64,000 nucleotides of DNA from Deltaproteobacteria bacterium (GCA_016192705.1 JACPTQ010000072.1:6611-70610), one strand, 5' to 3'. Positions 26,703 through 60,672 are shown, counted from the first letter of the stretch. Program-made: numbers and translations. The notes: generated by a model from the letters alone, not told the origin.

Positions 26703-27125
26703 AATCACGTCGCCGCTTTTGATTCCAAGCTTCGAAAAAAGACTCTCCGGCCGAACGCTAAACACTTTGATACCCACGGTTTTAGCCCTTTCAAAATAGA
26801 GGGCGACTCGCGGGCACGGCGTGAGTTGGCCCTCTTTGGAGGGTTCGGAAAGCAACTCCTGCCGGGAGATAACGAGATTGGCTTGCGAATCGTTTCGGAT
26901 GGTCTTACGGGATAACGTTTTTGGCAGATGTTTCTTTTGATCTTGTTTTCTCGGTCGCGCCGGTTCTTCATCCTGCGCCTGCGCCGAAAACGAAAAAGCC
27001 AGGACGGGGAGTAACCACAGAGGCCCTGAGATTCGGAGATTGGAGGAGGCTGAAAACCTCTTTCTCTTCCGACCTCTCTCACTCTGCGTCTCTGTGGTTT
27101 CTCTTCTATCTTCCATCTCTCTCAT
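26565..27125 (-). CDS. chimeric GspC-like PDZ protein carrying the GspD-type cleavable signal peptide (predicted soluble periplasmic PDZ paralogue)
   Basis: Start MREMEDRR... with the same SD and spacing as gspD. Signal peptide LWLLPVLAFSFSAQA|QDEEPARPRK is nearly identical to the GspD N-terminus. It is followed by a short linker and a PDZ domain whose C-terminal half (GDVIRRINGEDIDSPDKAFDAWRRLKDASSIQIELSGGGTKKKLNYQIQ) is nearly identical to the GspC C-terminus. No TM anchor or HR domain. Confidence 0.6.
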   Translation of the reverse strand: MREMEDRRETTETQSERGRKRKRFSASSNLRISGPLWLLPVLAFSFSAQAQDEEPARPRKQDQKKHLPKTLSRKTIRNDSQANLVISRQELLSEPSKEGQLTPCPRVALYFERAKTVGIKVFSVRPESLFSKLGIKSGDVIRRINGEDIDSPDKAFDAWRRLKDASSIQIELSGGGTKKKLNYQIQ

Positions 27126-27274
27126 CACTTCCACCTTCACTGGATCTGGTAGTTCAACTTCTTCTTCGTGCCGCCGCGCGAAAGTTCGATCTGAATTGAG
27201 CTCGCATCCTTGAGCCGCCGCCACGCGTCGAACGCCTTGTCGGGGCTATCGATGTCCTCGCCGTTTATTCGCTG
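26956..27274. repeat. direct repeat copy 2 of the gspC-3'/gspD-5' junction segment
   Basis: Partner of 26384-26702. Confidence 0.85.
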
Positions 27275-28102
27275 AATGACGTCTCCGTTCGTGATGCCGA
27301 TCTTCGAATAGAGGCTTCCCGGCCTGATGCTAAACAACTTGAACCCCGCGCCCTTACCCCCTTCAAAGTGCGGGACAATTCGGGCTTCCGTCGCGAGCTG
27401 GTTTAGGTTCGAGAGCCGATTCTGAACCTCCTGACGCGTGATGACGTAATCGCTGTCTGAAAGTTTTTTGATGTTCTTGTCGTCGACGGCGGTTGGTGTC
27501 CCTTCGCTCGCCGAAATCGTTGGCGGCGACGCGGCCGCTCGTGCCGCGCGCGCGCGTTTTGCCTCGTCGTCCATCGCTTCGAGTTTTTCGCGCTTGCCTC
27601 CCTGCTCAAGAATCACAGTGGGTCGCGGCCACCGATCGATTTCAACGATGGTCCACCCCTGAATGGCGCTTCCCATTCGATACAGCTCCGCTTCGGCGTT
27701 TGGAGCGGCTTTGTCTCGAATCGCCGCGAACGACCACGCAGGATTTTGCGCGACGATGGTGCCGACCAACTCCGCGTTCAGCTTGCTGTCTTGAACGTCG
27801 CCTTCCTTTTGTGGCACCAGCGCCGAACCCGCATCGGGCGGTGCTGTCGCGGCTTCGTACGAGTAACTCGAATTGAAAATGTTCGTCTTCAGGAGAGGCA
27901 TCGGATCTTTGCGGACATTTCGCGGCGCGGAAACAACGGGCAGCGGTGCCGGAGGATCGCCCGAAGCTGGCGCCACCGTGAGTGCGCGTTCGATCCAGCT
28001 CGATGCGCCCCAGGAACCGACGAGGGCGCCGAGCGAAACGACGCCGACGTTGACAACCCAAAAGTAGCGCTTAAGAACGGTTTGAAGGGTGGGCAGAGCC
28101 AT
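27137..28102 (-). CDS. gspC: type II secretion protein GspC (TM anchor, HR domain, PDZ domain)
   Basis: 321 aa; N-terminal TM (YFWVVNVGVVSLGALVGSW), Pro-rich linker, HR-like region (LVGTIVAQNPAWSFAAIRD...YRMGSAIQGWTIVEIDRWPRPTVILEQGGKREKLE), and C-terminal PDZ (FKLFSIRPGSLYSKIGITNGDVIQRINGEDIDSPDKAFDAWRRL). First gene of the gsp operon. Confidence 0.7.
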   Translation of the reverse strand: MALPTLQTVLKRYFWVVNVGVVSLGALVGSWGASSWIERALTVAPASGDPPAPLPVVSAPRNVRKDPMPLLKTNIFNSSYSYEAATAPPDAGSALVPQKEGDVQDSKLNAELVGTIVAQNPAWSFAAIRDKAAPNAEAELYRMGSAIQGWTIVEIDRWPRPTVILEQGGKREKLEAMDDEAKRARAARAAASPPTISASEGTPTAVDDKNIKKLSDSDYVITRQEVQNRLSNLNQLATEARIVPHFEGGKGAGFKLFSIRPGSLYSKIGITNGDVIQRINGEDIDSPDKAFDAWRRLKDASSIQIELSRGGTKKKLNYQIQ

Positions 28103-34200: not shown

Positions 34201-35249
34201 TCGTCGCGTAAAACTTGTTCGGGCGATATGATCTGGCCGGACCTGCGGGTCACTGGGCCGCCCACTTCGAAGTCGTTGAACCGTCCCCGCCCCGACCCCG
34301 TAGGTTTTTTTAGCTTGGTGAATGAGGCCACAACGGCGTCGATGGCGGCGCGCATCGGAACTCCGTTTGGGTCGAGAAGGACCGGCCGCAGTTTGTATCC
34401 GACGGAGCTGTCTTCGTCGGCATAGACGAGCGGAAGGACTTGGCTCGCGACGGACGGCGCGTAGCAGCGAGCGACCGCAGCTTTGATCGCAGGGGTCCAG
34501 TCGACTTCTTTCATCCGCGACTGAAGACGCACGAGAACCTGGCGTTCGCGTCCAGGTCTGACAACGATTGGTTCCTGGAGCCGGCGCGCGAGGATTTCCG
34601 GGAGCTCTGTTTGCCGCGTCGCCTCGATGGCTTCGACGACGATCGCGCAACCGCCGATCGACGCGGGCAGACTGCCCATATAGATGTTGATTGCCTGACG
34701 CTGTGCCGTGAGGGCGATCCGCTCAACGTCCGCGAAGGTGAGTTTTTCCGCGACCATCTCGGCTTCGATTTCGTCGATCCGCTCCTTGGGGGGTGCCGGT
34801 GCCCTCGCGGCCCCCGCTCCATAGAAAACACGACGAAGGACGCCCCACTCGATGAGGTTGCGCCGCATCTTCGAGTCGCTCTGCAGCTCCTTGATGAGCG
34901 CCGTCATGATTGGAGCCACGGAGAGGTCTTGGCCGAACCCCGGGACGTTGGCGAGCGCTTTTTTCCACCGTTCAAACTCCCGCGGATCGGGCTCTCGTCC
35001 TAAGACAGTCTTGTAGGCGTACGCGGTGTTTCGACAGATGGTGCTTTCATTGTTTGGAGCGCACCCCGTGGTCGTCGCGCGCGTAAGCGCACGGCACGTG
35101 TCGTGTGTGTGCCAGGCGCACCAATCGGCGGCGCGGTCAGGTTTCCGCTGCGCTTGCACAGACGCTGGCACCGACCAAGCGAGCAAGAACGCCGGCATAA
35201 CGAGTCTGGCCATCCGAGTTTTCCACTTAAAACGTGCTGCAAACCGCAT
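28278..35249 (-). CDS. giant secreted protein (2323 aa), mostly alpha-helical/low-complexity, no recognised catalytic domain
   Basis: Uninterrupted 6.97-kb ORF directly upstream of, and co-oriented with, the gsp operon. N-terminal signal peptide (MARLVMPAFLLAWSVPASVQA). Cys-rich N-terminal module with a LGREPDPxEFERW motif, then long A/G/L/K-rich helical regions. Shares short motifs with the 828-aa protein at 52404-54890. Confidence 0.6.
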   Translation of the reverse strand: MRFAARFKWKTRMARLVMPAFLLAWSVPASVQAQRKPDRAADWCAWHTHDTCRALTRATTTGCAPNNESTICRNTAYAYKTVLGREPDPREFERWKKALANVPGFGQDLSVAPIMTALIKELQSDSKMRRNLIEWGVLRRVFYGAGAARAPAPPKERIDEIEAEMVAEKLTFADVERIALTAQRQAINIYMGSLPASIGGCAIVVEAIEATRQTELPEILARRLQEPIVVRPGRERQVLVRLQSRMKEVDWTPAIKAAVARCYAPSVASQVLPLVYADEDSSVGYKLRPVLLDPNGVPMRAAIDAVVASFTKLKKPTGSGRGRFNDFEVGGPVTRRSGQIISPEQVLRDELFEKLKANKTGFPGFKAIFGELDKLRRLYAGQVIASLFPIVRQNFPTVLGAAVHPNGRVVQAAADWIRTSPPGKWEQDIRGNWSRQSELIRALTETGLDVFKRERLCVNERYEVLYAAIKRQFPKFGFNKDPNQVAVALSKCIDGLEIVNALDLAYFHYTKVEPGLRAIFKDPSSDLLKTALAKTSNVKLTPADWQIISSRDQRRIPQSRNLANFIAPLLEKPVSDKVEAEYVRLREETVRSSLLTVFKDAITCSPQIIPAVTSSGNPFFKALLRRFSSTERLDAANVRAKLTQEQGSLLDKLKVGSPNRDAAIAALRREFATELDHYPSIAGMLLFDDASDPSRASPLRTVIKEMWGWCKGANDPAKLEKSVREKRGYFLSQLGIGAELERLKGEAVKSLIFVATAELRANYPGIAGYLMNPTLPEHPSGTRPNRALTLMRKLLDDGVGGGGPQGLRNHFATADARRKFVSESNLDSTAGTVLWMKENACISQGLAKFRAVFEPPFSRFPFEKASDFGKWVENGQGEFAKTIEALGKHVLTQFSKKDGPCAGAMVSPVTVVLNTVYSSARQIVTNLVEAKTKEFDETAARLNDCHDVAKGTLWFSFEIIRIDVETAMRHLGSGNRKDADDTLSQISSRCKGSGRGDFLPSLSFPKNLTAKEKNCTGFEQIRSLLADGDKRYDDFCANAQEALTKASKAADDRRRALEEQARREADAKAPPWEKFGKWVGKVSNGVGQMFSDPQAAMSTFNSAMSDVMVEGGSLAKGIGDGFAKVGEFTTAGLQAMGQAAVGAVTYVVDLGKNAIDFVGNSAKALWDQYGVPIAEGVKRAISDAFDTIVSPVLDQIYSAVTGPVGRLITALGQNAIDCLAGQTKVSAIEPVCGLVPPRVRVVFKDVKDFFTGAGKILDIVSSLAKIVETVTGLCPDPFAAMTSPGGKTQAIADAVNKLIDALLDQAAIMLRPALVGIVSGFVEAVLKLPVVTKTIYPPLVAMITQAVAAAGATLGGVGALLGPVAGVLSHFALNALHDTFLAPLIAEKVSDFVFDGTAIPVVNIRIPGAKELVRNFVLKPLLNQSFDALRPVLSEPLKALCKGVGAVIPLDKLRDAARKLGAITEQKEYGPGDLILAAVQRLADFAEKESNRFGDGIKFLGDVFGAWGLGMPPDLMTFAGKIATESGRRFGVELRLSCGNKQLKGGDVAALAKEVFDCIGPVALNALQESTIVSAVAEIAKGATSKSGLDAAWGAFVGSFGGFKLSFPALPGKLDELLKSGLDAGAAVFGRFVGQVCSSVTRDIGKGEGIKKFLENLFNCLGVGAQIGLAAGALDAFSGLGFGAIKGGLSSLFGALGRAIPGDFNVAAMLDKASGAAVEKFGLQIRAACVNLAFEGNDWRGAFDRFVTGVVACLRREAESALIVGRNALVKEALMKVVDAARGEGETFRLQFANLAGFFENAGLNFSLNFGGAGSVNLPDMLKGVGANIGRYGIPAMSQCLESCIGADGSKLNIGANVDWGALVSQAGSCAGTALAAAAYDGTVRWIANEARSGTLKGAVVDNIEKLASAVKLGFPKDLRDKVATLTDTGFSTFANELESNPKCKPSCGGSANFSGMLKNATECLAESLNAAAGEALKVFACSEYRKALNRTISSADDGLKAVDAFFGDARMRGVPGVSDLKSAIGKVASAGRDTFVRKASDCCENNLTRNVGATFGAVVKCTSVAAEDAVKAAGAAAQGPAATSQSPVVDPAGKWQGNANNHRFDLEIARAGSGYQLDLRFGGAGRENIDSVSFDPATRVLELRRVSPGWWQWYRLTVSANSLEGRFSNLQQAQKPNLSEFKYGVTAQRAGWPSGFASRLVRDVVPAIAGPHENPVGRQFIYRSNLEPIKNLLPEMEGSVLIQGGSGVPPVFTLTEPAIVYHTDAYDHTKCQPPGGGWTKVGTIYRASDNHPWGVYRKRVPAGRFEAARCSNNTAVFVKRIP

Positions 35250-44130: not shown

Positions 44131-44181
44131 GGGGCGAGTCTGCCTGAACTGTGCGGTCTGCGTCCAGGGTTCGTGCGATTT

Positions 44182-44729
44182 CCTCGATCCCCGGATAAGC
44201 AGCCAGTTTTCTTCCTTACGTAGGGTCGGCAGGTGCCGCTTCGGCGCGCCGACGTCCTCGGGTCTGAACGGACTCGCGCGACAGAGCCGCTGTTCAGAGG
44301 TAAGCGAAAGCTCGGTGATCCCAGCCAATATTGCGCTGCAGACCCTGCGGAGGCGCGCCTATGCGAGCCTCTGCCGACCCCACGCAAATCCGGGCGGACC
44401 GCTTTCCGGAGACGCTTTTTCTGGGCTTGAGGGCGGTTCGAAGAGTTCACCCGCTGGGTATCAGCTGACGATCGATCGACTCCCAAGTCTCTGAACCGAG
44501 GGTTCTGGGAAACGGCTGGTTTCTGCTTGGGCGGGCGGGGATTGGGTGAGCGGCGGCTCGCGTCCGCAGGGGATGAGGTGCCGATGGGGCGTGGGATTGC
44601 CGTTCTCATGACGCTTGGTTCATTTCGTACAGACTCACATTTCATGTCAGACCCGAGGACTTCCGCGAGCCGGAGCGAGCCCAACCCCGACCGCCCCACT
44701 GAAGTCTTCTCCGTTATCCGGGGATCAGG
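44182..44729. mobile_element. MITE-like non-autonomous element, copy 1 (548 bp) with 16-17-bp terminal inverted repeats and 9-bp target-site duplication GTGCGATTT
   Basis: Ends CCTCGATCCCCGGATAAGC ... GCTTATCCGGGGATCAGG (imperfect inverse complements). Flanked by gtgcgattt at 44173-44181 and 44730-44738. No ORF with transposase features inside. About 90% identical to copy 2, with indels. Confidence 0.6.
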
Positions 44730-44771
44730 GTGCGATTTGCGGCGTCGCGCGATCGCGCGTAACATCCGCAA

Positions 44772-46046
44772 ATGACTTCGATGCGAGCAAAACTGAGACC
44801 GGATGCGAATGCGAAAAACGTGCGAGGACTAATCCCGCTCGAGCGCGCCCCTGGACTGTTCGACGCGCTCGACGTGGATGCGTGGCTTTTGACCGATTTT
44901 CGCGCCCAAAATCCGATTGCGGCGAACGTCGTCTTGCCCCGGGGACACACGACGCGGCGCTATTTTGTGATCGTTCCGCGAACGAATGTCGCGAAGACAA
45001 AACTCCTGCTCCACCGGATCGAGGCCGATAACTTCACGAACATCGTGGGCGAGAAACGATTCTATGCCTCTCGCGCGGAGCAGGACGAAGGGCTCAAGTG
45101 GCTTCTCGCAGGCGTCCAGCGCGTTGCCATGGAGTATTCGCCCAAGGGCGCTCTCCCGTACGTTTCGCGCGTCGACGCGGGTACCGTCGATCGCGTGCGC
45201 GCGCTCGGCATTGACGTTGTCTCGTCCGAAATGTTGGTTCAGCGGCTCCTCTCGCGCTTGACGCCGGCCGGCATCGCGTCACACCGTCGCGCCGCGGCGG
45301 CTCTCCACGACATTCAGGAAGCGGCGTTCTCGCGCATTCGCCGCGACGTTCGCGCGCGACGGAAACTCACCGAGTGGACGCTCTCGAAATGGATGGCCGC
45401 GGGGCTTTCAGCGCGCGGGATGGTTTTTGACGCCGAACCGATCGTCGCGATCAACGGTAACGCTGGGAGGCCTCACTATTCACCCGACGCCACACACGAT
45501 GCTCCGATCGGCGTGGGCGATCTTGTGCTGCTCGACTTATGGGCCAAGGAGAAAACGCCGGGCGCGATCTACGCCGACATCACGTGGGTTGGCTTCGTTG
45601 GCGACCGCGTGCCAGCCCGCTACGCCCGCGCATTCGCCACGATCGCCGCAGCGCGCGACGCGGTTGTCGACCACTTGAGATTAAAAGCACGCCCCACGGG
45701 CGCCGAGCTCGATGGCGTCTGTCGCGGCGTCATTCGGCAAGCGGGGGAGGGCGCCGCGTTCATTCATCGCACGGGGCACAGCATCGACACCGACGTGCAC
45801 GGCTCGGGCGTTCACATCGACGGTTTCGAGACGCACGATTCGCGCGTGGTTGAGCCGGGCTCTCTCTTTTCGGTTGAGCCGGGCCTTTATTACGACGACT
45901 TTGGCGTACGCACCGAGATCGATGTCCTCATGACGGCGGGCGGCCCCGAGGTAACAACCGGCACACCGCAGCGCGAGATTGTTCCTTTGTTCGCCGAGCG
46001 ATCCGAGCAAAAGCGCGCTTCAAGAAAGGATGCCGCGCGCGCGTGA
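44772..46046 (+). CDS. M24-family metallopeptidase (Xaa-Pro aminopeptidase / creatinase-like)
   Basis: C-terminal pita-bread domain motifs HRTGHSIDTDVHGSGVHI, VEPGLYYDDFGVRTEIDVLMT. Confidence 0.7.
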   Translation: MTSMRAKLRPDANAKNVRGLIPLERAPGLFDALDVDAWLLTDFRAQNPIAANVVLPRGHTTRRYFVIVPRTNVAKTKLLLHRIEADNFTNIVGEKRFYASRAEQDEGLKWLLAGVQRVAMEYSPKGALPYVSRVDAGTVDRVRALGIDVVSSEMLVQRLLSRLTPAGIASHRRAAAALHDIQEAAFSRIRRDVRARRKLTEWTLSKWMAAGLSARGMVFDAEPIVAINGNAGRPHYSPDATHDAPIGVGDLVLLDLWAKEKTPGAIYADITWVGFVGDRVPARYARAFATIAAARDAVVDHLRLKARPTGAELDGVCRGVIRQAGEGAAFIHRTGHSIDTDVHGSGVHIDGFETHDSRVVEPGSLFSVEPGLYYDDFGVRTEIDVLMTAGGPEVTTGTPQREIVPLFAERSEQKRASRKDAARA

Positions 46047-46930
46047 AGCTCCCGATTCCGTGGGGGCGACTCTCGCGGCGGAATGCGCGGCAACTCGTCG
46101 CCTTCCTCATTCTCGTTGGTGTCGTGCTCTATGTGCGCTCGCTGCTTGAAGCGGACGAAAAAATTCAGTCGTGGGAACAGCCGCTCGATGTGGCGGTCAT
46201 TCAACTCACGCCGGACGAGACGCCGATTCCAGATGAGTTCACGCGCACATTTTTTGCGCCGTCAAGCTACCCGGCCGATCGCGGGACGTCACTCCACGCG
46301 ATTCCGCGCTGGCTGCGGGACGAATCGGTTCGCCTCACCGGACGCGATCGAACCCTCATTCGCTTTCACCTTTTTGGGCCGACGGTCTTTCGCGAACCAC
46401 CACCAAAGCCGAGCGACAGTTTTTTCGGGCGCATCGTCGCCGGCTTTTCGTTTCGCTCCTACTTAAAGCGCGTCGCGACGGCGGCTTCGGTCGATCTTTC
46501 AAAGTTTCTCGTGAAGCTTGTTCTCGTCTACTACTCACCCGGAAAACCCGTCGACAAACATTCCGACTCGTACGGGTCGTTTCGTGACCACGCGGGGCTT
46601 GTCTACGTGCCAACGGCGATCGCCGACATCCCTTACAACGTCGCCGAAATCACGCACGAGCTGATGCACACGTTTGGCGCGAAGGACAAATACGACGGCC
46701 GCGCGACGGTTTTCCCGGGCGGATACGCGGAGCCATTTAAGGCGCCGCTTCTTCCTCAACGCTTCGCCGAGGTGATGGCCGGTGAGATTCCGCTTGCGCC
46801 GAATCGGTTGCGCCCGGTGCGCGGACTCGACGAGCTTCGCGTGGGGCACGAGACGGCGCTTGAGATCGGTTGGCTCGATGATGAGACGGTGCGTCGGTAT
46901 TACAAGGGGGGGCGACGAACCCGCGAATAG
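46043..46930 (+). CDS. hypothetical membrane-anchored protein with HExxH motif (possible zinc metalloprotease)
   Basis: N-terminal TM (LVAFLILVGVVLYV); HELMHTFGAKDKYDG contains an HExxH motif. Confidence 0.35.
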   Translation: MKLPIPWGRLSRRNARQLVAFLILVGVVLYVRSLLEADEKIQSWEQPLDVAVIQLTPDETPIPDEFTRTFFAPSSYPADRGTSLHAIPRWLRDESVRLTGRDRTLIRFHLFGPTVFREPPPKPSDSFFGRIVAGFSFRSYLKRVATAASVDLSKFLVKLVLVYYSPGKPVDKHSDSYGSFRDHAGLVYVPTAIADIPYNVAEITHELMHTFGAKDKYDGRATVFPGGYAEPFKAPLLPQRFAEVMAGEIPLAPNRLRPVRGLDELRVGHETALEIGWLDDETVRRYYKGGRRTRE

Positions 46931-46946
46931 CTGCCGCGCAAACGTT

Positions 46947-47570
46947 TCACCGCGCAGGATTCAGGAGGCATTGCCGCAACGAGGTCGTCTCGGTAAATCC
47001 GCAGCGTCCATCCGCCTGTTCTTTGCATTCAGCGGTTTGGTAACATGCATACTGTGGTTTCCAATCGCACAACCTCGACACAATTTCCTTGCCACAGTTT
47101 TCGCTGAAGCAACCGGCCTTGAGGCACTTGCCCGGCCGGGCCGGCTTCTTGACATACCACCATCGCGCAAAGCTTGGCGAAAGGCCGCCCTCGCCGATCG
47201 TCATTCGTCCGCCGTTCGGGCTCTTCGGGTGCTCCCGAAAGTTGAGACTGAAGTGCTCGAGCCAATTGCTCTCCTTCGACGTCGGGTAAAAAGTGCCGTT
47301 GGGAATTGGACAGGGCGAAGAGTTGCATCGCAAAATCCGTTTCATTCTCTTGAAGTGAACGAGGATTTTTCCCGCGGTCTTCATTTTTATGTCGTAAACC
47401 TCGGAATACCCCGGATCTTGGATCTTTTCGAAGCAGACTTCGGCGGGCTCGGCTTCGACGGCCGTCGTCGTTTCTGCGGCGATCCAATAGCATTCCTGGC
47501 GTCCATAAGCGTTTCCAGTGAGTGCAACGAGTAATCCGATAGCAATGACAGCACCTTGGCGCATCTTCAT
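46947..47570 (-). CDS. hypothetical secreted Cys-rich protein (lower GC than surroundings)
   Basis: Signal peptide MKMRQGAVIAIGLLVALTGNAYG, about 14 Cys in 207 aa. Local GC visibly lower (about 55%) than the roughly 67% surroundings. Confidence 0.45.
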   Translation of the reverse strand: MKMRQGAVIAIGLLVALTGNAYGRQECYWIAAETTTAVEAEPAEVCFEKIQDPGYSEVYDIKMKTAGKILVHFKRMKRILRCNSSPCPIPNGTFYPTSKESNWLEHFSLNFREHPKSPNGGRMTIGEGGLSPSFARWWYVKKPARPGKCLKAGCFSENCGKEIVSRLCDWKPQYACYQTAECKEQADGRCGFTETTSLRQCLLNPAR

Positions 47571-47644
47571 CCTCCCTTTCTGAGTCGCCTCCGAAAAACC
47601 GACTTTCCCAGCAGCCCGTTAGACGCGCAAGCTCGTTCGTTTAT

Positions 47645-47968
47645 TCATCGTAGGTCGATACCCGCGAGGTCTTTGGTGAGCGTGCGCAGGTAAGCGAAAA
47701 GCTCAATGCCGCGCCCGCGGTCGTCGAACCACCGCCCGGACGGCTCGTCGTAGTTAAAGTGGATCGCCGTGTCGCGCGCGGCGAGCCAGATTTGCCGCAC
47801 GGGGCGCTGCGTGTTGATGATGCATCGGACGCCCTTCGGGTATTGGATGGTAACGACGTCCCCGGCGTTCGTCACTTCGGCGAGGTCGGGGTCGACGTCC
47901 TCGAAGCGTGCGTCGATCTCTTTCCAGGCGCTATCAACAAGCGATAAATATCGGCTTTCATCTAACAT
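47645..47968 (-). CDS. cyaY: frataxin-like iron-sulfur cluster assembly protein CyaY
   Basis: 107 aa; pattern LADSAWKEID...DVDPDLAEVTNAGDVVTIQYP...IINTQRPVRQIWLAA...HFNYDE..GRW matches the CyaY/frataxin family. Confidence 0.65.
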   Translation of the reverse strand: MLDESRYLSLVDSAWKEIDARFEDVDPDLAEVTNAGDVVTIQYPKGVRCIINTQRPVRQIWLAARDTAIHFNYDEPSGRWFDDRGRGIELFAYLRTLTKDLAGIDLR

Positions 47969-48015
47969 ACGTCTCTCCTTGCGCTACCAAAGCCCAACCT
48001 GTACATACCACTCTT

Positions 48016-48654
48016 ATGAAGGGGGCCGCGATGTCGATCAAGCACGTTATCTTTTTCTTGATAGCAAGTTCGTGGGTCAGTGCTGGTTGTAAGTCCGAAG
48101 ATTCTCGCCCCGCGTCCGACTGTTTTGGTTACACCGCGCCGCCCGGCTGGAAACCAACGAGCAAGAGCTCGGGCACCGACGGAAAACAGATCATTATTTT
48201 TGGCGAAAAGATTTATTCCTTAGGGGCGCAAAGAAACCAAGACAACTTTCTTGTTCGCTTCATTCCGTCGGGCGGATTGTCATTGCCGGGTTACAAGGAC
48301 TTCATCTTGAAGGCACTCGGCAGCGCCGACAAGATGAAAGAGACGATGAAAACGGCCGAGAAGATGCGGGCCAACGTCGGCCAATTCAAGAGTTTCGTTG
48401 ACGCGACAACAGAAATAAAAGCGCCGGTCGTCACCGACCACAAGGTGAGTGGGCGCGATGCTTATCACATCTCGTCGGAAACAGCGCTCGCCGTGGGCGA
48501 GAAACCGGTTCGCCTCATCACACGGTCGGTGCTGACGAAGTGGGGAAGCGAGTTCATCATCGCCTCGGCCGGCTACCCCGATTTTCGCGACGCCGACTTG
48601 CGCTCGCTCGCGGACGCGTTCCTTGCGTCGGTTAATTTCGATAAGTGTAAGTAG
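48016..48654 (+). CDS. hypothetical lipoprotein (lower GC)
   Basis: Start MKGAAMSIKHVIFFLIASSWVSAGC (lipobox SAGC). The ORF-track upstream extension overlaps cyaY on the other strand and is discarded. The stop lies inside the MITE copy-2 target duplication. Confidence 0.45.
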   Translation: MKGAAMSIKHVIFFLIASSWVSAGCKSEDSRPASDCFGYTAPPGWKPTSKSSGTDGKQIIIFGEKIYSLGAQRNQDNFLVRFIPSGGLSLPGYKDFILKALGSADKMKETMKTAEKMRANVGQFKSFVDATTEIKAPVVTDHKVSGRDAYHISSETALAVGEKPVRLITRSVLTKWGSEFIIASAGYPDFRDADLRSLADAFLASVNFDKCK

Positions 48655-49168
48655 TCCTCGATCCCGGGATAAGCGGCCAGTTCGCTTCTGTGCGTAGGGT
48701 CGGCAGGAGCCGCTTCGGCGCGCCGACGTCCTCGGGTCTGAACTGACTCGTGCGACAGAGCCGCTGATTAGAGGCAAGCGAAGGCTCGGTGATCCCAGCC
48801 AATATCGCGCTGCAGACCCTGCGGAGGCGCGCCTTTGCGGGCCCCTGCCGACCCTACGCAATTCCGGGCATACCGCTTTCCCGGGGACATTTTTCTAAGG
48901 CTTGAGGGCGGCACGAGGAGCTCACCCGCTGGGTGTCGGCTGATGATCGATCGACCCCCAAGTCCCTTAGCCGCCGTTTCAGGAAAACGGCCGGGTTCTG
49001 GTATCCGCAGGGGATGAGGTGCCGATGGGGCGTGGGATTGCCGTTCTCATGATGTTTGATTCGTTTCGGACAGACTCACATTTCATGTCAGACCCGAGGA
49101 CTTTTGCGAGCCGAAGCAAGCCCAACTCCGACCGCCCCACGCTGGTCTTGGCCGTTAATCTGGAATCA
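48654..49168. mobile_element. MITE-like element, copy 2 (about 515 bp), 9-bp target-site duplication GTGTAAGTA; right terminal repeat degraded
   Basis: Starts gTCCTCGATCCCGGGATAAGC; flanked by gtgtaagta at 48645-48653 and 49169-49177. Colinear with copy 1 apart from a roughly 30-bp indel and substitutions. Confidence 0.6.
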
Positions 49169-49178
49169 GTGTAAGTAA

Positions 49179-52403: not shown

Positions 52404-54890
52404 ATGCGAAAAAGGAAAGCGAAACTCTGGCTGTTGGGGGCTGCCGCCGTCGGAACTTTTCTCGGGAACGTGTCGATCGAAACGGGCCAGGTCGGCCTCG
52501 TGTCGACCGCGCGGGCACAGTTCGATCCCTGGATTCAAGTGTGCGGACCTTGGGATGGCGGGTGCTGGCCCTCCGACGGAAACTACTATGGGGATGGTAA
52601 ACGAAGATGGTTCCTCAAGGTTATCGGTTGTCAAATTGATTGGGGTAGTGACTTTACGAACCAAGGGAGACGCGATGGCTTTTTTAATTGCGTGCATAAC
52701 AACGCTAAAAAGCTCATTGACAACGCTGGGAAGGCGCTCAACGAAGGAAAAGACTGGGTGGTGAACCAGATCAAAAGTCCGTTCGGCTGCCCGCTTCGAA
52801 TCGATAACATCGGCGGTTTCCTCAACTGCCTCGGGAGAAAACTCAAAGAACAATGGGATAAGGCCGCCAAAGCGATGCAGCAGTGGGGAAGTTCCGCGGC
52901 CCAGTTCTTTGATGGTTTTATCTACGACATTATCGGGAAACCAATCGGCTGCTCGAGAGAAAACAGTCGGGTCTCCAGCTTGGCCCGCTTAGCGGAATGC
53001 GTCGGCAAAGAGATTGCGAAAAAGGGCAGCGAAATGTTCGAAGCCGGCAAGAAGACGCTCGGCGACTTGACCGGGGCTTTCGGGAAGATTGTGGAGGCTG
53101 TAAAGCAGTTCCTCGGTGCCAACCCCAAGTTTTTGGATGCGCTCAAATGTGCCATCCCGGGAGGAGAGGCTCTTGTTGCCAAGGAAGCCCAAACATTTAA
53201 GCTCGTCGAGGGAATCTTCGGTTTCATCACGAATCCCGTCGGGACCATCAAGAACTGGCTTGACTTCGGGCAGATGGGCAAAAACTTGATGGCGAAATTC
53301 GATGAAGTCAAATCGCGGGCTGTCTCGCTCATGGGTCGGGTTGGCGGCAAGTTGCAACAAGCCGGAGCGGCGTTCGGCGCCCTGCTCGAATCGCCAAAAA
53401 ACGGGGCGAGGCGCGAGGCCGTCAAGAAGCCCGTCAGGGAGGCCCTTGGTGATGTTTGGGTCGAGACAAGCGCGTTCGCAAAGAACATTCCAGGAATGTT
53501 CTGCCCCTTTACGATGGCCGAGGGCTTTGGGCTCGTGCACTTCGCGATAGATGGCGTGACGGGTCTCGTGGTGGAAGCCATCGCAAACGTCTTTGGTACC
53601 GCGAAGGACGTTTTGGACGGCGCCATTCAAAAGGTCACGGACAAATTGAAGGAACTCTTTCAACAGTTCATCAGCGGCAGGCTCCCGCTGGCGATCGCGA
53701 ATCTTCTTCCGCCCTGGCTCAAAGATGTGGGGTTATCGATCCAACGCGTGGTGGGTCAGGTGACAGGCCTCTCAAAGGACATGACATCAAAGATCAAAGG
53801 GTTTGTCCTCGACATCAAGAAGGGCGGCCAGAGTGCGCGCACGGCACTCACGCAGCTACAGGGCGTCGTCGGTTCTCTGCCCCGGCTTGATGCGGGAGGC
53901 TTTCGACTCGCGGTGCGTGCGGGCGTTGAGTTACTCAAGCAGTGGGGGCGAGGACTCATCGATGTGGAGCTTGGCAAGATTGTCGATGGCGCGCTGTCAG
54001 GTCTTTCGACATCGGTCGGCGTCTTGACGAGCGGCATCGATGCGGTTTGTGGGCTCGTTCCTTTTGTGGGTGCGGCCATCTGCGCGGCGACTATTACGAC
54101 TGGGCTTCGCGTTCTGTGGGACTGGGTGGGCGCTCCGCCGGTCAAAGAAATGGGCCTCAAGTTTGTCCGTGAAAAGATCGACGGCATCGCCGACTGGATT
54201 GGCGCAAACCTCGACAGCGGCGCTGTCGGAAGAACCACGGCTCAGATAGGCCAAACACTCGGCGGACTCCAGAATTCGCTCGGTGGGCTGTTGGACAGCA
54301 TTAAGGGATTTGTGAATACGCAGATCCTGCCTGTCGTAGAGGGCTCGCTCGGCATGAACGATCTCCTCTTTCAGCTGCCGCAGTTGCCCGCGCTGGCGGC
54401 CGGCACAGCGCCCGCGTGCCCCGCGTGTCCGTCCTGTCAACCAGCCGCCCCGTGCGCCGCGTGCAGTTGCCCAGTCGCGAGTTCGTCGCCGCAAACATCA
54501 CAGGTGCAACCGGCCGCATCTGCGCCGTCGTTTCCACCCCGCGCGCAACGGGGATGGGCGTCACCTGCGCCGTCGTTCCCACCGCTCGCGCAACGGGGAT
54601 GGGCGTCACCAGGAGCTGCCGACCTTTGGCCAGAGGTGTTTGATTGGCGATGGTACGTCGAGAACCAACCTGACTTGAAGCGAGCGCAATCCGGACAGGC
54701 CCAGGCGCAGAGACATTGGCAAAGTCACGGGATTCGCGAGGGGCGGCAGGCGCACCCGAACTTCTCGACAAAGGCCTACCTCGCGAGGTATCCGGACCTT
54801 CAGCGTGCGTTCGGTGCGACGGGCTACGCGAAGGCCCTTTATCACTATCTCAACAATGGGATCAAAGAGGGACGTAAGGGCGCGCCCTGA
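52404..54890 (+). CDS. secreted alpha-helical protein (828 aa), distant paralogue of the 2323-aa giant protein; lower GC
   Basis: Signal peptide MRKRKAKLWLLGAAAVGTFLG. Shares motifs with the giant protein (AVCGLVPFVGAAI vs PVCGLVPPRV; GAFGKIVEAVKQFLG vs GAGKILDIVSSLAKIVE). C-terminus has a 54-nt tandem duplication (SFPPRAQRGWASP x2) and a repeated HYxNNGIKEGR-like motif. GC roughly 55-57% versus about 67% nearby. Confidence 0.5.
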   Translation: MRKRKAKLWLLGAAAVGTFLGNVSIETGQVGLVSTARAQFDPWIQVCGPWDGGCWPSDGNYYGDGKRRWFLKVIGCQIDWGSDFTNQGRRDGFFNCVHNNAKKLIDNAGKALNEGKDWVVNQIKSPFGCPLRIDNIGGFLNCLGRKLKEQWDKAAKAMQQWGSSAAQFFDGFIYDIIGKPIGCSRENSRVSSLARLAECVGKEIAKKGSEMFEAGKKTLGDLTGAFGKIVEAVKQFLGANPKFLDALKCAIPGGEALVAKEAQTFKLVEGIFGFITNPVGTIKNWLDFGQMGKNLMAKFDEVKSRAVSLMGRVGGKLQQAGAAFGALLESPKNGARREAVKKPVREALGDVWVETSAFAKNIPGMFCPFTMAEGFGLVHFAIDGVTGLVVEAIANVFGTAKDVLDGAIQKVTDKLKELFQQFISGRLPLAIANLLPPWLKDVGLSIQRVVGQVTGLSKDMTSKIKGFVLDIKKGGQSARTALTQLQGVVGSLPRLDAGGFRLAVRAGVELLKQWGRGLIDVELGKIVDGALSGLSTSVGVLTSGIDAVCGLVPFVGAAICAATITTGLRVLWDWVGAPPVKEMGLKFVREKIDGIADWIGANLDSGAVGRTTAQIGQTLGGLQNSLGGLLDSIKGFVNTQILPVVEGSLGMNDLLFQLPQLPALAAGTAPACPACPSCQPAAPCAACSCPVASSSPQTSQVQPAASAPSFPPRAQRGWASPAPSFPPLAQRGWASPGAADLWPEVFDWRWYVENQPDLKRAQSGQAQAQRHWQSHGIREGRQAHPNFSTKAYLARYPDLQRAFGATGYAKALYHYLNNGIKEGRKGAP

Positions 54891-55203: not shown

Positions 55204-57672
55204 ATGTCTCGATTCGTTTTCGTGACCGTCGCGCTCTTCGCGGCCGTTGGGTGTGGAAGTAAAGGGGAGAAGGGGGAGATGGGGACGAATGGGTCAGCGG
55301 GTCCGGGGGGCGACGCGGGACCAGAAGGCGCCGCGGGTCCCGCGGGCGATGCGGGTGCGACGGGTCCAACCGGTAACGCGGGTCCGTCGGGAGACGCCGG
55401 GGCCGCGGGAACGCCGGGCGCATCGGGCGGCACCATAACGGGATCGGTGAAGGACACGAACAACGCGGGCCTCGTGGGTGCCACGATCTCGACGAGCCCG
55501 ACGTCATCGTCGACGGCGAGTGACGTGAGCGGAAACTTCTCGCTCGCGTCAGTTCCGAACGGCGTCTTCACCGTCATCGCGACGTTGGCCGGTTACGGGG
55601 CGTCGAGCGTGACGGGCGTGAGCGTGACGGCGGGTGGTTCGACGAGTGCCGCGTTCGTGCTTTACTTGGCGGACGGCGGGTTTGCGTCGATCAGCGGGAC
55701 GGTCAAGAACACGGCCGGCGCCGCCATTGCGAACGCGACGGTCAGCGTATCGGGCGTTGATGCGTCCGCCGTGACCGCCGCCGACGGAACGTACACCATC
55801 ACAAACGTCCCCGCGCCCGGGCCCTATTTCCTCGACGTCGCGCCGCCAACGAACGACGCCGATGCGGGGTATTTCGCCGGCGACACCCGCGTGAGCCTTC
55901 TTCTCACGCGCGCGTCACACACCGACGCGAGCATTATTCTGTCTGCGCGACCTTCGAGCGCGGCAACGTACATCGGAACGTCGCTGTGCGCCCTGTGTCA
56001 CGCGGTGGTCGGTGACACGACGATTGTCCCCCGACATGCGTCGGCTGGGCATTGGCGCTCCTTGAGCCTCGATGGCGGTGAGCGCTTCGTCTCGACGAGT
56101 CTCTGGCCGAGCGTGGGTGCGACCGTCGACACCGGAAAATACGCGCAAGATCCAAACGGCGTGAAATATGACGCGGGGAACGGCGGCAGCGGCTGGAACC
56201 GCGTTTACCTGTGCCAAAACAGCGCGGGCTCTTACGCGATGATGTTCGGCCCAAACCCCGATGCGGGTGTCGACGCTGGGTGCACCGGCGCTGGGGGCAC
56301 GACCCAGGGAATCGTTATCCCGGTCGCGGGAACGTACGGCGGTGAGGGCGATCGGTCGACGTGGGATGGCGGGATTGTCGCGAACCTAGGAAAATTCAAG
56401 CAACGATTCTTCGCGCGGGTCAACGATGTCGATTCGGGGACCGGGTGGACTTACACCGCTGGAAAAGACAAAGACCTTCTCGTCCTACCCGTGCAGGTCA
56501 CGCAGTCCGGCGATGGATACCCCAAGTTTGACGTGTACAAAGAAACCGAATGGGCGAACCGCAATCGAACGTTCGCGTACGCGTGCGCGGGATGCCACAA
56601 CACCAACATGAACATCGTGTGGGACCAGGCTGGCGGCAGCGACTACATCACGAGTTACGCGTACACCGACCTCAACGTCGGCTGCGAGAAGTGCCACGGC
56701 CCGGGCTCCGAGCACGTCGCGGTGGGTGGCGGTTTGGCCAAGGCGATCATCAACCCGAAATACTTGACTGCGGACCGCGAGCGCCAGGTGTGTGGGCAGT
56801 GCCACTCGGGTGACGACGGAAAAAACGAGGGGAGCCAGAAGAAATACGGTTACGCGTACAACCTGAATTACGCCGACGCGGGCGCGACGTACATTGGGCG
56901 AGGGACGTACGTGCCCGGGTTCTACGACATCAGCGAGTTCATTTCGAACCTTGACGGCGGTGCTTCTTTCAACGCATGGGCGACGATTTTCGGCACGAAG
57001 ACGTGGGGCAAGGCGCACCGCCAGCAGTACGCGATGCTGCTCAAGTCGAAGCACGTGAACAACACGACGCGGCGAATGACGTGCGCGAGTTGCCACGACG
57101 TTCACAGCACGTACCAAGGTCCGAAGGCGCACAGCGTCACGTCGGGGAGTGACACGTTTGTGTTCGAAACGCCGAGGTTCAACAACAACGTGCTTTGCCT
57201 CTCGTGCCACGCGGGGAGCGGCGAGTTCGCGACGATGGCGACGAGCGACGTCGCGGCGATTCAGGTCGGCGACTCGAGGGTTGTTTCGAAGAACGGGACG
57301 AACCAGAGCTTTACGGCGGGCGAAATAGCGTCGGCGCTCGAGCGCGTCGGAGATGTGGTTGAAGGCCATATGAACAACAAGGCAAACATGGGTTTCTTCG
57401 TGATGTACGACCCTGAGCGCGAGCCAGGCGTTGGGCGCTGCATGAACTGCCACATGCCGCGGACGGCGAAGAGCGGCGGCTATACGACGGGCGTTGATGA
57501 ATTCGGCAAGACGGCGCTTATCGAAGGCGACCAGGGGTCGCACGTGTTCGACGTCATTCGGCCGCAGATGAGCCGCATCATGACCGACGGCGGCGTCTCC
57601 GACACGGCCGTCATGCCGAACTCGTGTGGCCCGTGCCACGCGCGCTATCGCTTCAGCGGCGACGGGCAGTAA
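55204..57672 (+). CDS. lipoprotein: collagen-like (Gly-X-Y)20 segment + carboxypeptidase-regulatory-like beta domains + octaheme c-type cytochrome domain
   Basis: AAGGAGG SD 7 nt upstream of ATG. Lipoprotein signal MSRFVFVTVALFAAVGC. 20 uninterrupted GXY triplets (GSKGEKGEMGTNGSAGPGGDAGPEG...GTPGASGG) at about 55255-55435. Eight CxxCH motifs (CALCH, CAGCH, CEKCH, CGQCH, CASCH, CLSCH, CMNCH, CGPCH). Confidence 0.7.
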   Translation: MSRFVFVTVALFAAVGCGSKGEKGEMGTNGSAGPGGDAGPEGAAGPAGDAGATGPTGNAGPSGDAGAAGTPGASGGTITGSVKDTNNAGLVGATISTSPTSSSTASDVSGNFSLASVPNGVFTVIATLAGYGASSVTGVSVTAGGSTSAAFVLYLADGGFASISGTVKNTAGAAIANATVSVSGVDASAVTAADGTYTITNVPAPGPYFLDVAPPTNDADAGYFAGDTRVSLLLTRASHTDASIILSARPSSAATYIGTSLCALCHAVVGDTTIVPRHASAGHWRSLSLDGGERFVSTSLWPSVGATVDTGKYAQDPNGVKYDAGNGGSGWNRVYLCQNSAGSYAMMFGPNPDAGVDAGCTGAGGTTQGIVIPVAGTYGGEGDRSTWDGGIVANLGKFKQRFFARVNDVDSGTGWTYTAGKDKDLLVLPVQVTQSGDGYPKFDVYKETEWANRNRTFAYACAGCHNTNMNIVWDQAGGSDYITSYAYTDLNVGCEKCHGPGSEHVAVGGGLAKAIINPKYLTADRERQVCGQCHSGDDGKNEGSQKKYGYAYNLNYADAGATYIGRGTYVPGFYDISEFISNLDGGASFNAWATIFGTKTWGKAHRQQYAMLLKSKHVNNTTRRMTCASCHDVHSTYQGPKAHSVTSGSDTFVFETPRFNNNVLCLSCHAGSGEFATMATSDVAAIQVGDSRVVSKNGTNQSFTAGEIASALERVGDVVEGHMNNKANMGFFVMYDPEREPGVGRCMNCHMPRTAKSGGYTTGVDEFGKTALIEGDQGSHVFDVIRPQMSRIMTDGGVSDTAVMPNSCGPCHARYRFSGDGQ

Positions 57673-57676
57673 GCGG
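57484..57676. repeat. direct repeat A (3' end of the cytochrome gene), about 93% identical to 58648-58840
   Basis: Aligned by eye. The two copies bracket the hydrolase gene; period 1164 bp. Confidence 0.85.
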
Positions 57677-57731
57677 GAGCCCACGTCCACGCCGTTGATG
57701 ATGAGCCCGTCGGACGCGCTATAATGGCGCG

Positions 57732-58622
57732 ATGCAACCGGCACCGCCCATGCCCGCATGGCTCGAGGCGATGGTCCCCTACCGCCGCTACCGGCTCGAC
57801 GTCGGTGACGACCTGCGCATGCACGTCATGGAAATCGGCGAAGGTCTGCCCGTCGTGCTGTTCCATGGAAATCCGTCGTGGGGCTTTCTCTATCGCCGCG
57901 TGGTCGACAAGCTCGCAGGCCAGCCCCTTCGGCTCATCATGCCCGATCTCATCGGGCTCGGCTTCTCCGACAAGCCCGGAGCCGACGCCCACACCCTGGA
58001 CAACCACATCCGCTGGATGAGCCGATGTCTCGATGCGCTGGCGCTCGAGCGCTGTGTCGCCGTGGTGCAGGACTGGGGTGGCGCCATCGGCGTTGGCGCA
58101 CTTGCGACGCGGCCCAAGTTGTGTACCGGGCTCGTCGTGATGAACACGGGGCTCTCCCCGCCTCGCAAGGGGTTTCGTGCCACGGCCTTCCATCGACTCG
58201 CGCGCGCACCTGGTATCAGCACGGCGCTGTTTCGGCTGGCGGGCTTTCCCCAGTCGATGATGTGGATTGCGCAGGGTGAGCGCTGCAGCATCCGCGGCGA
58301 GGTGGCGCGCGCCTACCGTTACCCGCTGCGTCGCTGGCGCGACAACGCCGCGCCGCTCGCCCTCGCGCGCATGGTGCCGAACGATTTCGATCACCCGTCC
58401 ATCCCGTCGCTCGAGCGCTGCGAGGCCTACGTGAGAGCCTTTACCGCACCGACCGCCATCGTGTGGGGCGATCGCGATCCGGTCCTCGGTCGGGTGCTCG
58501 GCTGGATGCGCAAGCTGTTGCCCAATGCGCCGGTGACCCGCACGCAAGCCGGGCATTTCCTCCAGGAACAGGTGCCGGACGAAATCGCCGCAGCGATTCG
58601 CGACGTCGCGGAGCGACGATGA
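57732..58622 (+). CDS. alpha/beta-fold hydrolase, haloalkane-dehalogenase-like family
   Basis: VVLFHGNPSWGFLYRRVV (HGNP(T/S)xxxL(W/Y)R signature), nucleophile elbow region DWGGAIG, C-terminal His. A perfect TATAAT sits 6 nt upstream of the ATG (57720-57725), suggesting a leaderless transcript. Confidence 0.75.
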   Translation: MQPAPPMPAWLEAMVPYRRYRLDVGDDLRMHVMEIGEGLPVVLFHGNPSWGFLYRRVVDKLAGQPLRLIMPDLIGLGFSDKPGADAHTLDNHIRWMSRCLDALALERCVAVVQDWGGAIGVGALATRPKLCTGLVVMNTGLSPPRKGFRATAFHRLARAPGISTALFRLAGFPQSMMWIAQGERCSIRGEVARAYRYPLRRWRDNAAPLALARMVPNDFDHPSIPSLERCEAYVRAFTAPTAIVWGDRDPVLGRVLGWMRKLLPNAPVTRTQAGHFLQEQVPDEIAAAIRDVAERR

Positions 58623-58647
58623 ACGAACCGCGACGAGCGGTGGATGG

Positions 58648-58840
58648 ACGACGGGCGTTGATGACTTCGGCAAGACGGCGCTCATCGAGGGCGACCAGGG
58701 GTCGCACGTGTTCGACGTGATTCGGCTGCAGATAAGGCGCATCATGACCGACGGCGGCGTCTCTGACACGGCCGTCATGCCGAATTCGTGTGGCCCGTGC
58801 CACGCGCGCTATCGCTTCAGCGGCGACGGGCAGTAAGCGC
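58648..58840. repeat. direct repeat B: orphan copy of the cytochrome gene 3' end (encodes ...GVDDFGKTALIEGDQGSHVFDVIRLQIRRIMTDGGVSDTAVMPNSCGPCHARYRFSGDGQ*), a gene fragment
   Basis: About 13 substitutions relative to copy A; retains the reading frame, final CxxCH and stop codon, but has no start. Confidence 0.85.
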
Positions 58841-58871
58841 GCGCGGAAGCGGGGGCGGTAGCGATCTTTCC

Positions 58872-58955
58872 TGGACTTGGACCTCGACTTGGACTTGGAC
58901 CTGGACTTCCGCCGAACGGTCCAGGACCAGGTCCAGGGTTAGGTCCAGGACCAGG
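58872..58955. repeat. inverted hexanucleotide-repeat hairpin: (TGGACY)6 - 9-nt loop - (WCCAGG)6
   Basis: tggacttggacctcgacttggacttggacctggactt ccgccgaacgg tccaggaccaggtccagggttaggtccaggaccagg. More GGTCCAGG copies continue to about 58990. No T-tract. Confidence 0.8.
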
Positions 58956-59034
58956 CGAGGACGGGGCTGCGGTAGCGGTCCAGGCCTATCCTGAACAGGA
59001 TGAACAAGATAAACAGGATTGCGGATGCGGAAAA

Positions 59035-59900
59035 CTACCTCGGGGTTGCTGGAGCAACCGGCGCGGGCGTCGCAGGCACCACGGTTGTCGGTGCCGTCTT
59101 CGGCGCGATGCGGCGCCTGCGGCCGCGTGCGACAAAAATCGCCGGATAGCGATCGAGGGCCGCTTCGTCGGCGCGGAAGATGAAGCCGGCGGCGGCGCGG
59201 ATCGTGTCGACGCCATAGCGCGCGTAAGTGGCGGCGCGGTCGCGAAGGTCGCGCGATTCGGTGGGGCTCGGGCTCCGTTCCGTCGCCCTCCCCATTTTCG
59301 CCGCGCGCTCAGCCCACTGGGTTTCGCGCCATTGCGGCGAAAATTTCGTCACTTCGCGGTCGTCCGACTTTGCGGCGAGAGCGTTCACGAGCTTCACCGA
59401 GATGTTTTGCGCCTGCGTGACGTCGGCTTCCGTGATTTCGGAGCGACACTTTGCGCCACTCCAGTTCGCCGAGAAGAGGCCGGCGAGCGCAGCCAAATCG
59501 TCGGCGGTGTCGAGGTGTCCTTGTCCCTCGCGGATAAGGTCGAGCTGCGGCGGTAAAGGAGGTCCGCTTGCCAAAGTGCTTGCGCGCGAACGACGAGGTT
59601 GTCGTGCGCGGCCGGGTCGAACGCGGCGGCGGCAAACGTCGCGACGAAGCGAGCGCGGTCGGCGGCGCAGCTTTGCGCGTTCTGGATGATCGCCGCGACG
59701 GCCTCGGGGACCTGCGCGCGAAACGGTGTCACGGCGTGCGCGGGGATCGCGTCGAACGTCGCGCGGAGCTTCGCGAGCGCCTCATCGCCGCCAGAAAGGG
59801 TGATCGCATCGGTTGCGGCGTGCGTCGCCTGCTCGGTCGTTTCGTTTGTCTTCGTTATCTCGTTCCCCTCGTGCGAATTGGCGGCCTCAATCAACCCCAA
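59035..59900 (-). CDS. hypothetical protein(s): two overlapping minus-strand ORFs (59394-59900 and 59035-59574), possibly one gene of about 290 aa with a frameshift
   Basis: Both ORFs are Ala-rich with no recognised domain and overlap by 181 bp in different frames. Which is real cannot be decided from sequence alone. Confidence 0.25.
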
Positions 59901-60309: not shown

Positions 60310-60672
60310 TCAATCGAGGGTGGAGCACGGATCGAAGGGGCTGAAGGAAGTTGGGTCGCGGGCACACGCGAGGATGGGAGGTACTGAAGGGAGGCCCAGG
60401 TGTTCGAGGATTGCGTGTGTGGGCTCGGCCTCAGTGATGACGGCGATAAATTCGAGACGGCCGTTGCATGCAGGACAGGCGAGTGCATCGACGTCATAGA
60501 ACTTTTCGAGCCATCGGCCGAGAAGCCAGTGGCTTCTCGGTGCGAGAAAAATGGCGAGACCGACGGAACGGAGGTCGCAGCCTACCTTGTTTCTACGCAG
60601 CTGCTGCGCCCATTCGAAGCGGGAGAGTCGGGACGTTGTCGCAGTGAGAAGAGTTGCGGCGAGCCGTCCCAC
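60310..60672 (-). pseudogene. remnant of an IS91/ISCR-family (rolling-circle) transposase C-terminus
   Basis: 120-aa ORF containing WAQQLRR...VDALACPACNGRLEFIAVITEAEPTHAILEHLGLPSVPP, resembling the conserved C-terminal WAxLLxRVF...CPxCGGxLxxIAxI...ILxHLGLP block of IS91-family transposases. No catalytic N-terminal part is present nearby. Confidence 0.4.

Follow-up and report, generated by a model that had tools for sequence, protein, structure and literature searches.

The gene for a haloalkane-dehalogenase-like alpha/beta hydrolase was found between two direct copies of the 3' end of an octahaem c-type cytochrome gene in Deltaproteobacteria bacterium (GCA_016192705.1, JACPTQ010000072.1:6611-70610). 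The whole stretch analysed, 64,000 nucleotides long, is called the window below, and all positions are counted from its first letter. We tentatively read the locus as a genuine insertion-duplication junction that arose by a Campbell-type single crossover of circular or concatemeric DNA with the chromosome, a real possibility that falls somewhat short of probable. A Campbell topology suits the boundaries of the locus better than the alternatives do.

Copy A of the repeat was located at 57460-57675 and copy B at 58624-58839, both on the + strand, with a constant offset of 1164 and no gaps. There were 16 mismatches in 216 nt, corresponding to 92.6% identity. The sequence-only reading of this DNA had noticed that the cytochrome 3' end recurs after the hydrolase stop codon, and had delimited a core (57484-57675 and 58648-58839); this core has 9 mismatches in 192 nt (95.3%). 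The recurrence is real, and at 216 nt the repeat is slightly longer than was stated there. Copy A comprises the final 70 codons of the cytochrome gene, the TAA stop codon and 3 nt. The leftmost 24 nt of the repeat matched at 17 of 24 positions and in frame (RTAKSGGY in copy A and RTATSGGW in copy B), with a longest identical run of 6 nt, while the rightmost 54 nt, including the final CGPCH haem motif, TAA and GCG, were identical. Both limits of homology were abrupt, the right one lying 3 nt past the cytochrome stop codon and the left one 1 nt past the hydrolase TGA (58620-58622). No microhomology was seen at the junctions on inspection. Copy A is continuous with the upstream cytochrome DNA and copy B with a downstream hairpin, as expected for an insertion-duplication. 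Only three direct repeats of at least 200 nt were present in the 64-kb window.

The target gene (55204-57672, + strand) encodes an octahaem cytochrome of 822 aa, the start of which was taken from NCBI (55204). The protein was 100% identical to MBI3074188.1 (P0001) from a metagenome-assembled genome (MAG) labelled Deltaproteobacteria bacterium, where it is encoded on a 71.7-kb contig. Pfam and NCBIfam matches placed a collagen-like and a CarboxypepD_reg domain at the N-terminus, followed by the multihaem region, and eight CxxCH motifs were counted. Upstream of the cytochrome gene, an 828-aa open reading frame (ORF) without a family match carries two tandem 45-nt units in its C-terminal part (54512-54601, 87% identical); they code for the peptide repeat SFPP-AQRGWASP.

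The insert between the copies measures 948 bp (57676-58623) and consists of a 56-nt spacer with a putative promoter (57676-57731, + strand) and one ORF, the hydrolase gene (57732-58622, + strand). The layout first described for this locus, repeat-gene-repeat with one self-contained gene as the sole cargo, holds. TATAAT was found at 57720-57725, 6 nt upstream of the hydrolase ATG, and TTGATG, a weak -35 sequence, at 57695-57700, with a 19-nt gap to TATAAT. A consensus scan found no full two-hexamer sigma-70 promoter, and no Shine-Dalgarno sequence precedes the hydrolase ATG. Three independent orthologues (L009, L012 and L013) carry a GCTATnnn box 6-8 nt before the ATG, which reads GCTATAnn in two of them and GCTATGGT in the third. 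The leaderless-type start with a consensus -10 box, reported earlier, is present, and its layout is common to these three orthologues. Because independent orthologues have the same box-to-ATG layout, the layout appears to belong to the family and the promoter to have travelled with the gene; gene and promoter look like one unit. A peptide encoded on the minus strand of the spacer, GLIINGVDVGS, was considered as a relic of a divergent neighbour. This idea was abandoned, as L009 carries its similar motif at the far end of that gene.

No similarity was found between the spacer and either the cytochrome upstream region or the DNA after copy B. A simple tandem duplication was excluded because neither the hydrolase gene nor the spacer is homologous to the flanks. 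An integron gene cassette was also rejected: the gene is preceded by a -10 box of its own, the repeat downstream consists of coding sequence and is not inverted, and no integrase was found.

The hydrolase (296 aa, MBI3074189.1) matched Abhydrolase_1 in Pfam at 1.6e-20, and its best relatives in the PDB were haloalkane dehalogenases (HLDs), with 5esr at E = 2e-31. It resembles the HLD family in the Abhydrolase_1 fold, the Asp nucleophile in QDWGG, the HGNP motif and the His of GHF. However, it differs from that family in scoring below the curated cut-offs of all three NCBIfam HLD models tested, NF002043, NF002938 and NF002873 (164/265, 132/241 and 117/466 bits, respectively). Its relatives are named variously in the sources as haloalkane dehalogenase, OleB-type decarboxylase and esterase. 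HGNP, QDWGG, DRDP and GHFLQE were invariant in the hydrolase alignment, and D114-W115, H275 and N47 were invariant in the alignment with nine relatives; from the family, these residues are predicted to include the nucleophile, the catalytic His and the halide-binding Asn. The protein aligned end to end with relatives at 65-72% identity, with both termini at full length. Because of this end-to-end alignment, the gene is taken to be intact and the ATG at 57732, which is also the start used by NCBI, to be the true one.

The hydrolase protein was also present at 100% identity on short contigs in Logan assemblies of other sequencing runs. Contig L001 (SRR12113425) corresponds to 57648-59170 of the window at 100% and covers the spacer, the hydrolase gene, copy B, the hairpin and 200 nt beyond. 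Contig L002 (SRR12113428), which was seen in 6 samples, corresponds to 57646-58815 at 100% and coincides exactly with the unbranched path that leads from one occurrence of the shared 54-mer to the other. Because L001 and L002 reproduce them, the repeat, the hydrolase-copy B join and the join between the shared cytochrome end and the spacer are not peculiar to one assembly. An assembly effect was weighed against these contigs, in which an empty site and a separate circle or tandem array of spacer, hydrolase gene and copy B would have been threaded together through the shared 54-mer. The source is a MAG, the k=31 graph cannot distinguish copy A from copy B before the spacer, and both ends of L002 fall exactly on the shared 54-mer, its length of 1170 being close to the period of 1164. 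However, L001 runs from the hydrolase gene through copy B into the hairpin and beyond, and in the MAG contig the spacer is joined to bases specific to copy A. Moreover, a 1.2-kb circle existing on its own would have no replication function, and the repeat and both junctions would still be required in real DNA, and we find this explanation barely credible. The two nearest annotated cytochrome homologues come from the sister MAGs GCA_016218965 and GCA_016218825, and the one from GCA_016218825 (P0021) was also encountered in a Logan run belonging to the SRR121134xx series, from which the hydrolase contigs come (SRR12113407/425/428).

The mismatches between the copies were unevenly distributed, with 7 in the left 24 nt, 9 in the next 138 nt and 0 in the last 54 nt (chi-square p = 3e-5), giving identities of 71%, 93% and 100%, respectively. 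The divergence of the left 24 nt differed from that of the remainder of the repeat (p = 5e-4), with a sharp identity step at 57483/57484. In these 24 nt the synonymous proportion was 0.62, and 5 of the 7 mismatches were at third codon positions. Over the whole repeat, 9 differences were synonymous and 7 nonsynonymous. The resulting dN/dS of 0.22 rejects neutral divergence of both copies (p = 0.005). Much of the divergence appears to have arisen under protein constraint, which fits a donor segment from a working cytochrome gene.

The copies differ at six residues, three of which lie at sites that are invariant or nearly so among 15 orthologues: the K of KSGG, the P of the P-Q/W/A motif and the S after it. 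Copy A retains all three, and copy B has T, L and R at these sites (K->T, P->L and S->R, respectively). There is no start codon at the 5' edge of copy B, and its reading frame is open through TAA. Because copy B is altered at orthologue-conserved residues and lacks a start codon at its edge, copy A is the working end of the cytochrome gene and copy B a displaced, decaying relic. A mosaic of this kind is predicted neither by a duplication of a single age nor by one clean crossover of uniformly diverged sequences, and implies a conversion tract, heteroduplex repair or more than one event. It had been proposed that the event be dated from the divergence of the two repeats; because the copies are mosaic and not uniformly diverged, such dating is unsafe.

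The uneven divergence also bears on the possibility that copy B stems from an older cytochrome paralogue, or a partial tandem duplicate, of which the hydrolase unit displaced most and left the tail; recent conversion by the working gene would then have homogenised its last 192 bp. The step from 71% to 95% at 57483/57484 resembles the edge of a conversion tract, and the excess of third-position mismatches at the left end is as for old coding divergence. A proven case of such a pattern is found in the same window, where a tandem duplication of the gspC tail (26383-26717 and 26955-27289, period 572) spans the gspC 3' end, the intergenic region and the first gspD codons and creates a 219-aa ORF with a PDZ tail. 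This duplicate matched GspC at 98% over the last ~50 aa and at ~37% over the preceding ~70 aa, a step that appears to be of the same kind as in the cytochrome repeat. However, this requires the replacement to have begun, on its left, at precisely the point past the cytochrome stop codon where homology ceases, and nothing of a second cytochrome upstream region is left in the spacer. Furthermore, no second cytochrome above 49% identity was found in the protein collection, which includes this MAG. An origin of copy B from a paralogue is accordingly ranked by us as unlikely.

In a full-length search, the best non-self cytochrome homologue had 49% protein identity, and a GTDB cytochrome scan, in a set that does not contain the source MAG, gave a best match of 39%. 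The hydrolase gene was next to a cytochrome homologue at 0 of 42 loci (6 homologue contexts and 36 GTDB loci with more distant relatives). The contexts of the 49% homologue and of two 44% homologues were without the hydrolase gene and were not conserved among themselves. Hydrolase orthologues at 65-71% identity were located in unrelated neighbourhoods, two of which were conserved with each other, and neither the cytochrome gene nor any gene of the window's right-hand 14 kb was found in these neighbourhoods. The hydrolase cluster contained only the Logan and NCBI copies of the same gene. Two degenerate DNA patterns designed from the repeat gave 0 matches in JGI metagenomes, and exact-protein look-ups of the hydrolase, the cytochrome (P0001) and the paralogue P0178, described below, returned no record. 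The pairing of cytochrome and hydrolase is unique to this genome among those available and therefore weakly favours insertion, the comparisons being distant. A 179-aa ORF past the hairpin was tried as a match to a gene of equal length near the hydrolase orthologues in L012 and was rejected, as there was no tblastx homology.

For the formation of the locus we infer a circular intermediate, a type of recombination and an order of events as follows. The 948-bp unit (57676-58623), made up of the hydrolase gene and its short leaderless-type promoter, would have entered the chromosome at the cytochrome 3' end. This would have taken place by a single reciprocal crossover of the chromosome with a 1164-bp DNA, circular or concatemeric in form, in which the hydrolase gene was joined to a cytochrome 3' segment. 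Because the insert encodes no recombinase, the crossover would have been carried out by host homologous recombination or by an enzyme acting in trans. The last 216 bp of the cytochrome gene would thereby have been left on both sides of the insert. Afterwards copy A would have kept the cytochrome gene intact, copy B would have accumulated damaging changes, and the former cytochrome hairpin would now end the hydrolase transcript. The mosaic implies either that the donor was diverged and the right-hand 192 bp were afterwards evened out by heteroduplex repair or gene conversion, or that there was more than one recombination event. In the sequence-only reading the locus had been called a Campbell-type integration scar; the topology and the boundaries fit that name, and the circular intermediate and homologous recombination stay putative, with an extra conversion needed for the mosaic.

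Several observations weigh against the single-crossover scheme. The divergence is not uniform, as the product of a single crossover would be, and the scheme therefore needs an additional conversion. Nor did dN/dS reject (p = 0.12) a duplication in place in which copy A evolved under constraint and copy B neutrally. GC content at third codon positions (GC3) was 0.808 in the hydrolase gene, the highest among 41 window genes (mean 0.705, sd 0.046), but the cytochrome gene was second highest at 0.792, and composition does not mark the hydrolase gene as foreign to the locus. The copy A-spacer join rests on the MAG contig; of the shared sequence before the spacer, the k=31 Logan contigs confirm no more than the final 28-30 nt. 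The scheme gives no account of how a circle arose in which a cytochrome fragment directly follows the hydrolase stop codon. Searches of collections that hold no close relatives yielded neither an empty site nor a donor nor a circular form; for the first two, the reason is that the nearest cytochrome homologue is only 49% identical.

The absence of a recombinase from the insert bears on a further explanation, namely that the locus is a stripped site-specific integrative element at the cytochrome 3' end, with an attL-cargo-attR arrangement like that of a cis-mobilizable element (CIME) and comparable to e14 and phage 21 at icd. The anatomy matches icd/e14/icdC, with an intact gene and a displaced C-terminal pseudogene, and the left edge, similar at 17/24 positions, might represent an att core whose binding sites are imperfect. 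Debris of mobile elements also adjoins the locus. However, recombinase and integrase families were absent from the insert, the flanks and ~45 window ORFs across 64 kb, and the 5' edge of the repeat, which is expected to be an identical core, is its most diverged part. The insert contains one housekeeping-type gene and no phage genes or genes of an integrative and conjugative element. A search of the repeats and the window found no tRNA, tmRNA or Rfam family, and therefore the repeats are not RNA-gene att sites. A stripped element of this type seems quite unlikely to us.

A second repeat-insert-repeat structure was identified in the window, with repeats at 44181-44731 and 48655-49172 around an insert of 3.9 kb (44732-48654). 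The repeat is non-coding, ~550 nt long and 79-88% identical with a 34-nt indel, and the structure lies between smpB and a polysaccharide deacetylase gene. No recognisable tmRNA and no Rfam match were found in this ~550-nt repeat next to smpB. The insert carries an M24 peptidase gene, a CyaY frataxin-like gene and three unknown genes, partly with lower GC, and no recombinase was found in it. Its first 40 nt form a spacer in which TAACAT stands 6 nt upstream of the first ATG (44772), and the right repeat copy follows directly after the TAG (48652-48654) of the last gene. The two inserts of the same build lie 9 kb apart. Both start 40-56 nt before a start codon with a -10-like box 6 nt upstream of it, and both end flush with a stop codon, the second repeat copy beginning 0-1 nt later.

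The second insert also bears on an explanation by end-joining, in which a linear hydrolase fragment would have been joined at a break with nicks staggered by 216 nt, with fill-in making the long target duplication. This would not require a homologous donor segment and would account for the trimming to promoter plus gene, and the second insert, with its ~550-bp repeat, has the same build. However, the copies would initially have been identical, and a divergence of 29% at the left against 0% at the right would then be hard to explain. The lack of microhomology at the junctions also counts against it, and to our knowledge end-joining duplications of such length are not an established process in bacteria. 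End-joining at this locus is considered highly unlikely.

The shared trimming of the two inserts may reflect chance, selection for compact inserts or a common process. It is conceivable that this lineage gains genes as recombinase-free promoter-to-stop units with a long (0.2-0.55 kb) target duplication, which we rate as very unlikely. Candidate routes for such units are homologous capture of small circles and end-joining at widely staggered breaks. If the shared trimming were not due to chance, it would point to an undescribed regular route of cassette-like gene insertion, and, should a shared process lie behind the second insert, recombinase-independent gene gain could be studied starting from this locus.

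The DNA downstream of copy B contains a hairpin of GGACYT/AGGTCC hexamers of ~100 nt (58862-58963, + strand), which begins 22 nt after copy B. The region 58837-58985 folded at -88.6 kcal/mol (z = -6.7), the hexamer array was unique within the window, and a T-run was absent. A hexamer hairpin near the site had been reported before; it is present and stable and follows copy B. Originally it probably served the cytochrome gene as a terminator-like structure, and it now stands after the hydrolase gene.

Further downstream, a pseudogene of a 283-aa hypothetical protein (59035-59900, - strand) was identified by its protein match to P0178 (HYY84_12555). It contains a frameshift, a ~33-aa deletion and a 29-aa insertion, and NCBI annotates only the last 117 aa. 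P0178 is intact on another contig of the same MAG and matched at 93% over the first 106 aa and 71% over the rest. The P0178 family was found at 80-87% nucleotide identity in a JGI metagenome, and a relative on L050 adjoins an antitoxin gene. Comparison of the ORFs at 59035-59900 with Pfam, PHROGs and plasmids (tblastn) gave nothing. A weak C-terminal remnant of an IS91-family transposase (60322-60543, - strand) was detected by tblastn against plasmids, with 37-42% identity over 60-70 aa (E 2e-7 to 1e-4) to features annotated as IS91 family transposase; it had no Pfam match, and the remainder of the gene has been lost. The IS91-like remnant that had been linked to the insertion does exist as this weak C-terminal piece, but its position is 1.5 kb beyond the repeats, and nothing connects it to the event. 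Capture by IS91 or ISCR, which would place a transposase gene and oriIS between the duplicated segments beside the captured gene, was rejected, this remnant outside the repeats being all that was found of such an element. As for the proposed insertion hot spot, the remnant and the decayed multi-copy gene beside the hairpin fit repeated uptake, and would fit a flank that has previously taken in and lost DNA, but the IS91 piece is without a link to the hydrolase insert.

The remaining window is ordinary chromosome and includes purH, purD, an RNase R gene, a type II secretion cluster, accD and smpB. The gene for type II secretion protein F is split into two overlapping ORFs (20809-21330 and 21128-21952, - strand) with one T2SSF domain each. 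This suggests a frameshift, which either is genuine and makes the gene a pseudogene or stems from an indel in the assembly. A 2323-aa ORF (28278-35249, - strand) had no Pfam match at E <= 1e-5. A CT-rich motif of 41 nt (CCTCTCTCACTCTGCGTCTCTGTGGTTTC...) was present at 21973, 26501, 27073, 41279 and 62872, with 66-73% identity to the reference copy. Its copies lie at or near gene ends and are not in Rfam, and the motif could be a regulatory or small-RNA element.

The locus is a clean case from nature in which one metabolic gene joined a chromosome with no mobile-element machinery found; the lineage, deltaproteobacterial or myxobacterial, is uncultured and comes from groundwater. The target gene stays intact, and the insert could be removed again by recombination between the repeats. 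Such junctions are easily overlooked, and the orphan fragment is prone to mis-annotation.

In laboratory Campbell insertion-duplication, a non-replicating plasmid with a gene fragment gives a direct fragment-insert-fragment arrangement, which is revertible; when the fragment is from the 3' end, the upstream copy of the gene is left intact. The topology of the product is the same here, but the present case is natural, the copies are mosaic and 7% diverged instead of identical, and there is no vector backbone.

In ISCR1-linked class 1 integrons, as summarised in the part of PMC3575428 that cites Toleman et al. 2006, a duplicated 3'-CS surrounds non-cassette genes, and the arrangement is usually attributed to recombination of circular intermediates. 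The likeness is that genes are bracketed by a partial duplication of the adjacent segment with an IS91-family element nearby. However, ISCR1 lies between the duplicated segments, by the captured gene, whereas the IS91-like fragment of ~70 aa described here lies 1.5 kb outside the repeats.

The kind of structure is already known, and on present evidence the locus adds an instance, not a principle. Its closest precedent is the e14 element of E. coli, which is inserted at the 3' end of icd and has the C-terminal pseudogene icdC at its far end (PMC13626634). In the part of PMC13626634 that cites Hill et al. 1989, icd and icdC are described as differing mostly synonymously and at a few residues, and recombination between the copies would remove e14. 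As with e14 and phage 21 at icd, the insert described here lies at a gene 3' end, the gene is kept intact by the adjoining copy, and a C-terminal fragment is displaced. However, e14 is a 15-kb prophage with its own site-specific recombination, whereas the present insert is 948 bp long with one hydrolase gene and no recombinase found. An element of the e14 type would be expected to have an identical core at the 5' edge of the repeat, and here that edge is the most diverged part.

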